Below are positions 24,993-52,992 of a stretch of 64,000 nucleotides of DNA, piece after piece. How positions within the stretch are numbered: the stretch's first letter is position 1; every line of letters starts with the position of its first letter. The stretch comes from Eledone cirrhosa (lineage: Eukaryota): positions 16,244,001 through 16,308,000 of the forward strand of contig OZ024740.1 of the NCBI GenBank assembly GCA_964016885.1. The letters are read 5' to 3'. The notes below the pieces were generated by a model that made no database searches, had not been told where the DNA came from, and saw only the letters and a list, made by a program, of their open reading frames with translations. Position numbers and translations under genes: made by a program.

Positions 24993-25523
24993 AGGAATAC
25001 GTACTTTTATTATATATATATTATATATATATATTATATATATATATATACTGAGAGAAAGAGAGAGAGAGAGAGAGAGAGAGAGAGAGGGGAGATGGAG
25101 AGAGAGAGAGAGAGAGATAGAGAGAAAGAGAGAGAGATAGAGAGAGAGATAGAGAGAGAGAGAGAAATTTAATTCCACAACAAATTTGCAAACCATACTC
25201 GAGGAAGTTGTTTCACCGGACGGATTTTCAACCGCAGCCATACACGGGTTGAAAATCCGTCCGGTAGAACGCGCGTCCTTGAGTATGCTTTGCTACTTTG
25301 TTATGGAACTAACTCTATACCGAACTCATCCTTTGGACTGAGTGTTCTACCAACTATGGATTACACCCTCCCGTTATGTTACCACAATATGTGTGTGTGT
25401 GTGTATATATATATATATATATATATATATATATATATATATATATATATATATATATATGTCCCAAGGCTCTGATACCATCAACACTATACACACAGAG
25501 CTGGCATATCTAAGAACTGACTA

Positions 25524-25579
25524 ACTGCCTGATGAGGTCATAGCCATTCAATGGCTATCATCGAAATATATATAGCAGT
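25524..25579 (+). ncRNA. Type I hammerhead ribozyme motif
   Basis: ACTGC-CTGATGA-[stem II ATAGCCAT/ATGGCTAT]-GAAA-TATATA-TA-GCAGT, with a perfect 5-bp stem I and AATAAA directly downstream. Confidence 0.85.
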
Positions 25580-25676
25580 AAATAAAGGATTATGAGTTCA
25601 TGCAATTGACTTATGTTTCGTTACTATATATATATATATATATATATATATATATATATATATATATATATATATA

Positions 25677-26106
25677 TATATAAACGTTTGTATATGTATA
25701 ATAAAGCCAAAACAATGCAGGTATGGACATAGAATAAAGAATGCAAATGCAAAAGATATTGTTGACAATTAGTCTTTTACCTTAGATTTATTTAAATGTC
25801 CTTAATTTTCGAGATAATATCTCTTCTTCGGAGGGAAGTAAAGCGGTTAAACCAGTGTTCTAAATAGCTTGGCAAGCTATTTAGAACACTGGTTTAACCG
25901 CTTTACTTCCCTCCGAAGAAGAGATATTATCTCGAAAATTAAGGACATTTAAATAAATCTAAGGTAAAAGACTAATTGTCAACAATATCTTTTGCATTTG
26001 CATTCTTTATTCTATGTCCATACCTGCATTGTTTTGGCTTTATTATACATATACAAACGTTTATACCTGATTACACAATGCTTCAAGTGAACTATAACCT
26101 CCTCCA
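25677..26106. mobile_element. Fold-back element with about 195-bp arms (centre about 25871), a degenerate minimal hammerhead (25910-25944) and a 40-nt tail
   Basis: 25677-25870 mirrors 25873-26066; CCT-CCGAAGA-A-GAGAT/ATCTC-GAAA-AT-TA-AGG followed by AATAAA. Confidence 0.75.
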
Positions 26107-26318
26107 TATATTTATATATTTATTTAGGTTTGAAGGTTCACCACTGGATAGAGCTGGTCAATTCCGTATGGTCAATCTTGATGTAATATTATGGAGAGTA
26201 CTCAACGTAAAGCAGTTCAACCGTCTTCGTTTGTGTAGTTGGTGGTGCGAGTACGGAGTTAAATATTATAATAAAATAACAGGAGTCTGTACTGGTGTAA
26301 ATCCTTGAAAGGTTTATT

Positions 26319-26376
26319 ATACTATGATCATTTCAATGACCGGGTTCCGTATGATTCCGGTGATATCATCAGGTAT
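26319..26376 (-). ncRNA. Type I hammerhead ribozyme motif
   Basis: Minus strand ATAC-CTGATGA-[ACCGG..CCGGT]-GAAA-TGATCA-TA-GTAT, then AATAAA. Confidence 0.82.
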
Positions 26377-27509
26377 TCGAAATATAATAAATGAATGTAA
26401 CAGATAAAATCCATGGGGCTGAAAATCATAGACCCGAGGACGACCGACCATCTAGCATCTTCCACTTTAGCCGGTCGCCCTCAACTGCTGCCCATTCGGC
26501 CTACTTATGGATTTTATCTGTTACATGGAAGAACGGACGTAAAACGGTGATGATGATGATGATGATGATGATGATATATATGTGTGTGTGTCTATGTATA
26601 TATATGAATATATATATTCAAAATAATGGGCGCATGGGACAAAGACAATGGCAATAACACAAAAAACATATATAAACGGACAGTTCCATCTCCTGAGTCA
26701 CCTGAATCAACCTCGGTAAATTAAGATCGATACTATTCATTCCAGTTCATATTAAAACAAGTAGAGAAAAATGCAGGATAAGTTATGTCTTTGGCAAATA
26801 ACACAAATATAAATGAAAAAGTATCGTAAGTGCGTCAACTTCTAAAAAGGGAGAGAAGAGTGCGAGGGGACTTAGCCAAAGGAGAGAAATTATAGAAAAG
26901 AGAGAAATAGTAAAACAGAAAAGAATCATATGGATTGCAGACCAACGTGCAGACAAGAAAGATTGTTACTAAGCATAAAAAGGTAGAAGAGAGAATAGAG
27001 AATGACAGTCCGAGCGATGTGATGTCTCTTATATGATAGTTTAAAAAAAGCCCGTATGACTAAGTCTTTAGAATATGAATTCAAAATAGGGGCCACACAG
27101 GACAAGGACATTGGAAAAAAATGACTGAAAAACGGAGTCACGTCTTCTCAACGAACTTCTGGAAATAACAACGGTTTAAGACAGGTAAAGGTTGATACAG
27201 ACACACATAACAAACATACCGAAGATATATACATATGTACACAAGTATATACACACACACACACACATATATATATGTGTCGGATCGTAGCTAAGATGCT
27301 TCCATAGGCGGTATGCCGGTTGAGCATGATATAATATAAAACAAAAAATCAGTGATGCATCTGAACTCAATTTATTGTGTGTTACAATTGTTTCGCCGGC
27401 GGACAGCTCGAGACGCGATCATTGTGCGGATCTGTTTGATTCTGGACCCGAAATTGAGTTCAGATGCATCACTGATTTTTCGTTTTATATTATATATATG
27501 AAAATGTTT

Positions 27510-50111: not shown

Positions 50112-50467
50112 TTACGCCGTGCTTTCCAGCGTAGTGTCGTCTCTTTACGGTTTGAGTTCAAATCCCGCCGAGGTTAACTTTGCCTTTCATCCTTACGGGG
50201 TCGATAAAATAAAGTACCAGTAATGCACTGGGTAATTGCTGGCCTCATGCCAAAAGTAAAAACAATTATTATATATATATGGCGCTGGATTGGCAGTATC
50301 GGTAGAGGGTCGGACGCCATGCTTTCCAGCATAGTTACGTCCCTTTACGATCTGAGTTCAAATCCCGCCGAGGATGACTTTGCCTTTCATCCTTACGGGG
50401 TCGATAAAATAAAGTACCAGTAATGCACTGGGTAATTGCTGGCCTTGTGCCTAAAGTAGAAACAATT
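50112..50467 (+). mobile_element. Two tandem tRNA-derived SINE copies (50112-50267 partial; 50280-50467 near full-length)
   Basis: A-box TGGCAGTATCGG, B-box GAGTTCAAATCC and a conserved central domain resembling the Meta-SINE core (from recall). Confidence 0.87.
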
Positions 50468-51010
50468 ATTATTATATATATATATATAATTACATATATA
50501 TCAATATCAATATCAATATATATATATATGTATATATATATATATATATATATATTATATATATATATATATATATATATATATATATATATATATATAT
50601 ATATATATATATATATATATATATATAAATATATATATATTTCGTTTCTGAATTTGTTTAGCAAGATTCTTTATCTGAAAACGTGTGTTGAAACCGATAT
50701 TGTTATACTTTGGGAGGGTCATGTTGCCAATAAGAAACACACGCACCAGTTGCTTTCACTTCAATTTATTACAATAAATTTATTTATAAATTTAGGAATT
50801 TATAAATTTCCGGTTGGTTGGTCGGTTCCACAACCAGATGATTGTTTATATATTGTCAAAGTTCTTTCGTCACACATTCTGTGATCTCTTCAGTGGCTGG
50901 GGATTCTTTTCTTTGTTTTGTGCCTCTCCTTTGTTCTGTCCTATGCCATCTTGTTTTTGTGTGTTGTGTGCTTAGTTTGCGCATGTGTTACATTTATATA
51001 TATATATATA

Positions 51011-51075
51011 CAAGGGCGGTGCCCCAGCATGGCCTCAGCCAGATGGCTGAAACAGGTAAAAGAGTAAAAGAGTAT
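51011..51075 (+). mobile_element. Probable SINE 3' tail fragment
   Basis: GGCGGTGCCCCAGCATGGCC..TGAAACAGGTAAAAGAGTAAAAGAG resembles a common octopus SINE tail (recall only). Confidence 0.5.
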
Positions 51076-51437
51076 ATAAAAGAAATAAGATTTCGCTTCA
51101 AGCATAGCTTTATACAACATGTATAGAAACTTCGTATTTATATATATAATTTATATATATACATATATATATATCAATATATATATATATATATATATAT
51201 ATATATGTATATGTGTGTGTGTGTGTGTGTGTGTGTGTGTGTGTGTGTGTGTGTGTGTGTGTGTGTGTGTGTGTGTGTGTGTGCGCGTGTGTGTGTGCGT
51301 GTGTATATGTATGTATATATATATATATATATATATATAAAAGTTTACATATATATATACATACACATACATATACGTGTTTTGCAACTGGTCACTTTGT
51401 GGCTCAATGAAAAATTAATAAATTAAACAATCAGAGC

Positions 51438-52372
51438 TATATATCATAAAACATGTCTATAGAATCACAAGATAAAATATATACTATTTCCTCTTCCAAT
51501 TAGCATAATTAACTATATAAAAAATCGAATAGACCAGGCTATACGAATGAGGCTTCTATGAAGGAATCTCCGACAAATAACCGAAACTAGCGCTTCGCGT
51601 CGGCCGTAGCGGAATATTTATCGAATATTTCGACAGCGTAATCGCCTAGATATAGTCAACTAAACAGAATTAGGTTTAAAATAAACTAGGAGAAAATAGA
51701 ATACATTTAAATACCTCTACCATGGTTTCGTCCGTGTTTTTAGTTTTCCAATAATTATATAATAATTATATAAACTCGAGCGCCGGATTCTTCAGGAAGC
51801 TCGCTCATATCTAGACATTAAATTTTCCAAAGCGATCGCGCCAAGAATTCATTTCAAAATGGCTAAAAATCGTGACGTAGTCGCGGTCAAGTTGGAGGGG
51901 TGTGGTAGTTGCTTACGACTGGTGGCATTTTTGCTAGAAAGCACAGCACAATACAGCCAAATGAATTCTTGGCGCGATCGCTTTAGAAAATTTAATGTCT
52001 AGATATGAGCGAGCTTCCTGAAGAATCCGGCGCTCGAGTTTATATAATTATTACATAATTATTGGAAAACTCAAAACACGGACGAAACCATGGTAGAGGT
52101 ATTTAAATGTATTCTATTTTCTCCTAGTTTATTTTAAACCTAATTCTGTTTAGTTGACTATATCTAGGCGATTACGCTGTCGAAATATTCGATAAATATT
52201 CCGCTATGGCCGACGCGAAGCGCTTGTTTCGGTTATTTGTCGGAGATTCCTTCATAGAAGCCTCATTCGTATACCTGGTCTATTCGATTTTTTATATAGT
52301 TAATTATGCTAATTGGGAGAGGAAATAGTATATATTTTATCTTGTGATTCTATAGACATGTTTTATGATATA
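51438..52372. mobile_element. Large inverted repeat (about 415-bp arms, 105-bp spacer), each arm with a hammerhead (51714-51799 minus, 52014-52099 plus)
   Basis: 51438-51853 mirrors 51959-52372 with few mismatches; CTTC-CTGAAGA-ATCCG..CGGAC-GAAAC-CATG-GTA-GAGG. Confidence 0.88.
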
Positions 52373-52403
52373 TATATATATATATATATATATATATATA
52401 TAT

Positions 52404-52992
52404 ATGAATGTATGTATAGTATATTTGGCAATATGCCGTATATTTAATTAAAAACATTTAGAGGACCATACGCTATTCGTTTTAAAGTAGTGACTATATC
52501 ACTTAATTCTCTTCGGCGAAAGAAGGGAAAGAAGTTAACAGTCCGTTTCACGCTGGTTGGCGTTCATCAGAGCTACGTACTCCCCTGCTTCCGCCGAAAA
52601 TTATAGAAGCTGGCTTCTTATAGAATTCCAGTAATAATCAGGACCTGATTATATAGAGCGATTGCCGGTCCAGCAAAAATTAGATATTAGGATTGGTGCT
52701 CTGAAATAGCGATGTATACATGAATGTATGTATAGTATATTTGGCAATATACCGTATATATATATATATATATATATATATATATATATATATATATATA
52801 TATATATATATATACATACATACATACATAAATATATATATACTGTATATTGCCAAATATACTATACATACATTTATGTATACATCGCTATTTCAGAGCA
52901 CCAATCCTAATATCTAATTTTTGCTGGACCGGCATCAAGTGCTCAAACGGCCTACCGCATACGGACGCTTTAAGCATCCAACAGCAATTACA
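52404..52992. mobile_element. Hammerhead element family (HHR 52533-52574 minus) with inverted tail pieces; relatives at 43690-43885 and probably 37580-37800
   Basis: AGCT-CTGATGA-ACGC/GCGT-GAAAC-GGACT-GTT-AACT; 52665-52755 mirrors 52843-52934; 52404-52520 resembles 43692-43808. Confidence 0.75.

Follow-up and report, generated by a model that had tools for sequence, protein, structure and literature searches.

Twin bulged hairpins adjoin the two insertion ends of Hydra-clade Penelope-like elements in Eledone cirrhosa

The closest described relatives of the elements considered here are the Hydra-clade Penelope-like elements (PLEs), to which the text of PMC8557442 assigns a reverse transcriptase (RT) followed by a C-terminal endonuclease, RW[KR] and DKT motifs, a CxCx5C linker, a hammerhead in a pseudo-long terminal repeat (pLTR), (TA)n targets, an inverted 5'-truncated arm and a tail of 30-40 bp that is often one-sided. 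The hammerhead is the only structure annotated there, and the word hairpin does not occur in that text. For PAc, a Poseidon-clade element, the text of PMC11167929 reports internal RT initiation at two sites, which coincide with the ends of the tail; cleavage and extension affect both strands of the target, the reaction depends on RNA 3' of the initiation site, and a dimer is predicted. The tail, the fold-back and the two start sites are already known. Here we analysed 64,000 nucleotides (nt) of Eledone cirrhosa (assembly GCA_964016885.1, contig OZ024740.1, positions 16,244,001 to 16,308,000 of the forward strand; hereafter the window), where a coding Hydra-clade element and a number of short fold-back pieces inserted at (TA)n runs share a bulged hairpin. 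Apart from the tail length, the Hydra-clade features listed above recur here; the hairpin, present twice and lying next to both insertion ends, is not annotated in PMC8557442.

The hairpin has the form RCUC-Y-stem-loop-stem-R-2-nt bulge-GAGY-RCU, with the bulge on the 3' side, and its two copies (hairpins 1 and 2) sit between the hammerhead and the AUG, in the 5' untranslated region (UTR). A sequence-only reading of the window had noticed the 3' strand as a linear Y-GAGT-R-C motif lying 45-75 nt before the (TA)n junction in otherwise dissimilar elements. All 14 of its 8-mers were recovered exactly, with the same coordinates and strands (a minus-strand number gives the G of GAGT), but the motif proved to be one strand of a paired structure with compensatory pairs and not a plain sequence signal. 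An ACTC partner upstream of GAGT, followed by a short inner stem, occurs at 11 of the 14 sites (ten clearly); the hairpin at 43013 has two inner pairs only, and the window copies at 41186 and 52937 lack an intact 5' strand, which the relatives of 52937 possess. The motif is preceded by TC or TT, as had been claimed, at 13 of the 14 sites, 25340 having CT. The spacing also held at 13 sites, with 45-66 nt from the G to the next TA run, and failed at 26203, which has no (TA)4 within 140 nt and whose tail ends about 88 nt past GAGT.

That spacing is only part of a tail, because insertion ends adjoin either of two hairpins. In every multi-copy family the TA junctions fell into two classes: the short end immediately precedes the hairpin, and the long end follows GAGT by about 45-70 nt. 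Tandem copies of the coding family (family A) continue past the long end, reaching first another hairpin and then the AUG. The TA junction downstream of the motif is thus matched by a second hairpin copy just outside the insertion, and GAGT is found some 45-70 nt before a TA run because the tail carries hairpin 1 and never hairpin 2. Hairpin 2 was predicted from family A and then found in family B (27591, 44649), with 55 genome-wide matches against 0 for a reversed control; the family B copies that carry it run on into a different Hydra open reading frame (ORF). Both hairpins also occur in four further families (family C, L092/L118, L060 and the 30238 family; L numbers denote collected loci). 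In families A, B and C the feet of the two hairpins are 78-91 nt apart, and of 119 TA junctions 105 are found 2-10 nt to the 5' side of one hairpin or the other.

The position of the ends is set relative to the 5' strand of the hairpin and not, as first proposed, to the downstream junction, whose distance ranges from 42 to 95 nt between families. The modal short end lies 5-10 nt from the 5' strand in nine of ten families, although the loop moves GAGT by 15-77 nt, and the standard deviation of the short-end distance is 3.7 measured from the 5' strand and 19.6 measured from GAGT. Twelve families were tried for this comparison, two of which gave no ends, and the measurement was redone with masking of TA-like flanks; the one family outside the 5-10 nt range was measured on a window copy with an AAT run. 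A TAT lies within 10 nt of the hairpin foot in 39 of 53 modules, compared with 108 of 503 background 9-mers. The suggestion of a shared cis signal for 3'-end definition therefore survives in that the ends follow the hairpin and the hairpin is kept across families, while its structure and its point of reference had been misread.

The two kinds of end are combined in a regular manner. Among 60 two-arm insertions, 57 pair a short with a long end, so that the extension characteristic of PLE tails is present at one end only; one is short plus short, none is long plus long and two were left unclassified. Without the window copies the proportion is 49 of 52, whereas a free choice of ends would give about half mixed insertions. 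The mirror symmetry of the single short-plus-short insertion extends into the flanks, and this case may have arisen by later duplication. As a separate observation, the long end of one family is followed within 5-30 nt by the hairpin-1 tail of another at several loci (L152, L153, L156, L158, L159, L301 and L306), collected with patterns that select for this arrangement.

Positional enrichment of the motif, which had been suggested as a check, was confirmed in two held-out samples drawn from 120 unselected 10-kb stretches of the 3.0-Gb genome (two sets of 60), junctions with low-complexity flanks or with another TA run within 100 nt being removed before the count. Within the first set, Y-GAGT-R-C stood 40-80 nt before 38 of 560 (TA)n junctions. 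One hundred dinucleotide shuffles gave a mean of 2.9 and a maximum of 7, the reverse orientation gave 5 of 560, and other microsatellite junctions 1 of 172. The second set gave 29 of 505 against 2 of 207 controls, with 6 in reverse orientation and 2 at 100-140 nt. These counts include repeat copies of abundant families; after clustering, the 76 hairpin-positive junctions among the 1063 of both samples fall into 18 tail families, family B contributing 26. A hairpin descriptor written after the first sample matched 36 of 505 TA junctions in the second and 1 of 207 controls, while an initial strict descriptor had found only 10 of 45 near-junction clusters versus 48 of 665 (p=0.002). Three window sites were added to the original list: 38075 (-), 49675 (+, GAGCACTC) and 29924 (-, GAGCGCTT).

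Covariation, also proposed as a check on the tails, was evident as compensatory C-G/U-A changes in the inner pairs. MAFFT was unable to align the variable loops, and covariation was therefore counted on sequence-anchored modules, in which the 5' strand was chosen by sequence alone (two motifs without a partner were omitted), and on a gapless set of seven rows. The first inner pair is formed in 52 of 57 modules when a 2-nt bulge is assumed, and in 2, 3 and 9 of 57 for bulges of 0, 1 and 3 nt; it is C-G in 37 modules and U-A in 14. Inner pairs 1 to 3 each exceed all 5000 permutations. On a protein tree of the 22 families having both hairpin 1 and a long frame, a tree built without published Hydra members or an outgroup, the first inner pair switches at least six times, and its two sides agree in 22 of 22. 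The gapless set is 98% paired with six double changes, while slid controls reach 20-65%.

The arrangement extends beyond this genome. A metagenome scan returned 77 loci, 47 of them with an ORF start and 42 with enough upstream sequence, which collapsed into 36 families. Within 140 nt of the start codon, two motifs were present in 23 families, one in 10 and none in 3, whereas ORF-window controls from the same loci gave one motif in 8 of 400 and never two. The 23 families with both motifs have 54-82 nt between them and place hairpin 2 at 19-55 nt before the AUG. The metagenome form is GCUC...UU-GAGC-ACU, for which hairpin 1 of the present genome often has the compensatory ACUC/GAGU, and several terminal copies in other animals also end 2-4 nt before the hairpin foot. 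The PMC8557442 supplement gives six novel Hydra consensuses, and by eye three of them have the motif: Hydra-1_Ajap has both hairpins, and Hydra-2_Ajap and Hydra-2_Amil have hairpin 1. One of the six consensuses stops at the short end. Exact-motif matches to Naiad and Chlamys elements in that supplement fall in apparent coding stretches only, in a file where a match split over two lines can be missed. In File S2 of the supplement, several Hydra hammerheads also have ACTC/GAGT as their stem III.

The coding element had been taken for a Naiad-type PLE, an assignment that we rejected. Naiads, as described in the text of PMC8557442, have an endonuclease N-terminal to the RT, a DKA motif and no canonical hammerhead, while the element shows the order RT then endonuclease, a DKT motif and a hammerhead core; judged by domain order and motifs, it is a member of the Hydra clade. 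Full-length relatives contain a single ORF of 742 amino acids (aa) with RT first and endonuclease last and with RWR, DKT, CxCx5C and CxxC motifs; in L025 this ORF has YRDD at 352, the linker at 601 and then, by eye, a GIY-YIG-type core. Family A carries RWR at 37 and DKT near 118, and RW[KR] stands at 37 in all six ORF starts checked. CxCx5C was read in L025 and L278, CxxC at 699 in L025 and CCRH in a window copy; the linker was not found in the 710-aa frame of L092, and three other frames were too short to judge. A Pfam search of the coding element gave no match, its homologues carry PF26215, and the nearest named homologue, from Argonauta hians, is 41% identical. Its insertions are flanked by TA. 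Family A, at about 3.9 kb, is longer than the <3 kb stated for the Hydra clade in PMC8557442, and the hairpin spacings of 78-91 nt (families A-C) and 54-82 nt (23 metagenome families) found here exceed the tail length given there.

Two copies of the coding element are informative in the window. A 5'-truncated ORF at 45111..46709 (+) retains RT motifs, the CxCx5C linker and the C-terminal GIY-YIG-type endonuclease, and has no hairpin because its 3' UTR stops at the short end (48190). A two-arm family A insertion at 38265..40971 (+), between (TA)n runs, consists of an inverted short-end arm on the left, an ORF remnant (38569-39379), the 3' UTR, the hammerhead, the hairpin-1 tail and the long end. 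The hammerhead core, CTGAGGA...GAAA, is predicted by pattern at 40784..40826 (+), 64 nt upstream of hairpin 1; such a core pattern lies 43-71 nt before hairpin 1 in five of six window copies checked. The family B core looks degenerate. Family B sequences show a hammerhead-like fold with a deviant first core box (L177, L168, L183; window 27500-27560 and 44690-44772), and their arms often end 42-66 nt upstream of the short end, at a long stem.

In our view the twin hairpins probably dock the RT-endonuclease, with reverse transcription probably beginning in the U/A-rich RNA immediately 5' of each. The endonuclease would cut both strands of a (TA)n run, and each cut 3' end would pair with the UAU before one hairpin and prime cDNA (complementary DNA) synthesis. 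The paired hairpins of a single RNA would hold two protein subunits, and each subunit would extend one strand of the target; the two antisense cDNAs would be joined head to head, and the interval separating the start sites would become the tail. Protein binding, priming, dimerisation and the use of one RNA molecule are all proposed steps in this scheme, in which start-site signalling by twin hairpins would explain the one-sided tail. PAc, as described in the text of PMC11167929, differs in that it starts in an AC-rich stem loop within the ORF, with no target homology and no repeated element described, whereas the sites found here are in the 5' UTR, with a hairpin copy 3' of each and a TAT matching the (TA)n target on the 5' side. 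A broader proposal, on which we stay slightly to the doubtful side of even, is that coordinated double priming from twin hairpins on one RNA would by itself give the fold-back and the one-sided tail, that any template could be given a portable internal-initiation signal for a telomerase-related RT by adding the 25-nt hairpin 3' of it, and that other PLE clades would have twin signals of their own.

Several observations weigh against docking at twin hairpins. By pattern, 13 of the 36 metagenome families are short of one or both motifs, and among the consensuses of PMC8557442 Hydra-1_Obim has no motif by eye and Hydra-1_Crog deviant ones. In the 37927 family the long end is normal, but both read-through copies that were inspected (L328, L388) show only TT-TAGCACT 8-9 nt beyond it and lack the 5' strand. 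No canonical hairpin 2 emerged from pattern searches in the 37927 and 25340 families, in the former because only this half motif is present; for the 25340-type family these searches showed no read-through copy. Covariation rests on one to three inner pairs, since the four core pairs barely vary, and folding is weak, with z from +0.75 to -1.8 in five two-hairpin or hairpin-2 stretches, two of which paired the GAGC of hairpin 1 with other partners. G-U against A-C mismatches on the sense strand, which should tell RNA from cDNA, stand at 8 to 2 (p=0.11). Arm lengths correlate weakly (rho 0.50, confounded by family), so that a single shared RNA stays a conjecture. Finally, the Poseidon element assayed in vitro used the same start sites for both strands, with no target homology (text of PMC11167929).

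The main rivals to docking on RNA are recognition of DNA by the endonuclease and a translational operator. If the former applied, the endonuclease would read the hairpin on DNA, in an over-long cDNA or the donor, cut the TA-rich stretch 5' of it and trim to the short or long end. The text of PMC8557442 does ascribe the tail to endonuclease resolution of an intermediate, and plasmid DNA is cut by the Penelope endonuclease of Drosophila virilis only if the tail is present (text of PMC11167929); moreover, GAG-YR-CTC is near-palindromic, the stretch before hairpin 1 is itself a target of later insertions (L024), and the strand test is not significant. However, the compensatory pairs require a single strand, the excess in that test is of G-U on the sense strand, and in the single element assayed in PMC11167929 the tail ends are RT start sites on RNA. 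We regard this explanation as unlikely.

The hairpins might instead be a translational operator or a packaging signal bound upstream of the element's own AUG, with the ends set separately by UA microhomology in an AU-rich UTR. The closeness of hairpin 2 to the AUG in the 23 families, the enrichment of TAT at the end sites and the long end that the 37927 family keeps with half a motif all fit such a view. Yet these UTRs contain many TA-rich stretches and the ends nevertheless cluster 2-10 nt from a foot (105 of 119), and the end keeps its place next to the foot even where the loop is 60 nt longer, which makes this account quite unlikely as a replacement for docking. The hairpins may also act in translation control as a second role.

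The sequence-only reading had supposed that mini-elements are served by the autonomous element, and of this only a signal common to unrelated tails was borne out. Six window families (A, B, the 30238 family, the 25340 type, 37927 and 35869/42785) have Hydra ORFs of their own and are the 5'-truncated ends of those coding families; at the level of N-terminal protein, the ORF starts of four families share 33-54% identity. Since each family brings its own protein, most of the so-called mini-elements are truncated copies, and a retrozyme or a mini-element without coding counterpart was rejected for these six. In the corresponding rival explanation non-coding mini-elements would borrow the protein of a single coding element by means of a linear signal that precedes the TA junction by a constant distance. 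Cross-mobilisation through the common signal is plausible, and no ORF link was seen for 26203, 30603, 41186 and 52937 among the loci collected; against this stand the six families tied to their own ORFs, the constancy of the short-end and not of the junction distance, and the pairing of the signal, and we find borrowing very improbable. Non-LTR retrozymes (bioRxiv 10.64898/2026.07.22.740005) are likewise short hammerhead-bearing pieces related to PLE pLTRs, but according to the preprint's main text they are tandem non-coding repeats, whereas the pieces found here are fold-back stubs, with an ORF of its own in each of six families; that text makes no mention of a shared hairpin. Chance or common ancestry without function is hardly credible: Y-GAGT-R-C is indeed short and about a third of the positive junctions come from family B, but the enrichment held in both samples across 18 tail families, the compensatory changes recur, and the signal is kept among families with 33-54% protein identity whose UTRs are otherwise unalignable.

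In the window, hairpin 1 of family A occupies 40890..40912 (+), reading ACTC-CAA-loop-TTG-TC bulge-GAGT-GCT, 7 nt 3' of the short end and 66 nt from the long end at 40971; a second copy, 49079..49101 (+), lies inside the two-arm insertion 48793-49159. Family B is represented by 27571..27597 (+), from a family whose own ORF starts MRKHNIDFSTKNIP, by 44643..44669 (-) within the two-arm insertion 44599-44772, whose long end is on the left and short end on the right, and by a diverged relative at 43007..43033 (-), the one with two inner pairs. The hairpin at 30161..30244 (+) has a 63-nt loop region, and its relatives L142 and L337 continue through hairpin 2 into a Hydra ORF. The 35869 family, whose own Hydra ORF is seen in L394 and L359-L367, contributes 35833..35875 (+) in the two-arm insertion 35408-35925 and 42749..42791 (+) in the two-arm insertion 42389-42844. 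To the 37927 family, with its Hydra ORF in L328 and L388, belong 37912..37933 (+), here ACTT/GAGT, and the newly listed 38069..38090 (-) in the two-arm insertion 38029-38223.

The hairpin of the 30603 family (30557..30609, +) showed neither a short end nor an ORF link, and that of the 26203 family (26197..26259, -) has a long loop and no long TA run. A variant with a 1-nt bulge occupies 25324..25346 (+); its relatives read ACTC-GTCC/GGAC-T-GAGT and lie directly 3' of a Hydra ORF (L067, L319). Two hairpins are of GCTC/GAGC composition: 49658..49681 (+), of the GCTC/GAGC-ACT type usual in other animals and the best match of a metagenome-only covariance model, and 29918..29946 (-), obtained with the final descriptor and also missing from the original list. 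Only a 3' strand is present at 52935..52944 (+), with a G to A change (relatives: ACTC-TGCTC/GAGCA-TA-GAGT), and at 41179..41188 (-), a 3' motif without clear 5' partner and without a relative among the loci collected. The covariance model, built from 16 equal-length metagenome copies, matched 4 of the 14 original sites, all weakly (E 0.17-3.8), missing the long-loop copies, and also matched 49649 (E 5.5e-4). Rfam gave no gathering-score match in seven hairpin-bearing loci, and its matches in the window were all below gathering scores, none of them to a ribozyme. A deviant hairpin with a weak match to the covariance model lies at 24478-24509 (-) in the fold-back 24138-25008, and a two-arm insertion of the 52937 family at 27277-27486 has hairpin 1 deleted.

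Other features of the window include a 42-bp satellite of about 547 copies (1-22883), followed by a 46-bp array (22882-23554), and long fold-backs at 51360-52367 and 25684-26070 with no recognised tail or hairpin. A broken long interspersed nuclear element (LINE) with C-terminal C2H2 zinc fingers at 31600-34460 (+) is presumably RTE-like, and another at 57254-62179 (-), with ORF1, apurinic endonuclease, RT and zf-RVT split across frames, we take to be Tx1/L1-like. The fragment 53873-54379 (+) had no Pfam match and, in our estimation, resembles the C-terminal part of a LINE with a restriction-like endonuclease.

In LINEs, the choice of template for target-primed reverse transcription depends on an RNA structure, such as the 3' stem-loops of eel UnaL2 and the R2 3' UTR, and in L1 twin priming the use of two target strands gives an inversion. 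Those stem-loops are located 5' of a start site that is terminal, and they become part of the copy, whereas the hairpin described here is 3' of an internal start site, is present twice, remains uncopied in its second version at the long end, and accompanies arms that duplicate the same sequence. Hepadnavirus epsilon is a bulged hairpin that positions a reverse transcriptase and whose bulge templates a protein-linked primer; the likeness is one of analogy only, as synthesis here would be primed by target DNA and begin beyond the hairpin. The twin hairpin was found described neither in Rfam nor in the literature searched, which did not extend to subscription papers, notes in Repbase, supplements of preprints or the PMC11167929 figures.

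PLEs are the closest mobile relatives of telomerase, and their choice of an internal start and the one-sided tail of their fold-back insertions have long been open questions. A twice-repeated, covarying hairpin at a set distance from both ends provides a concrete cis element for these properties. It also offers a simple annotation marker for Hydra-clade ends, present at about 7% of the (TA)n junctions in this 3-Gb genome (76 of 1063 sampled). If the proposed role is true, the hairpin would act as a template signal absent from the product, which would bear on RT-based gene insertion tools.

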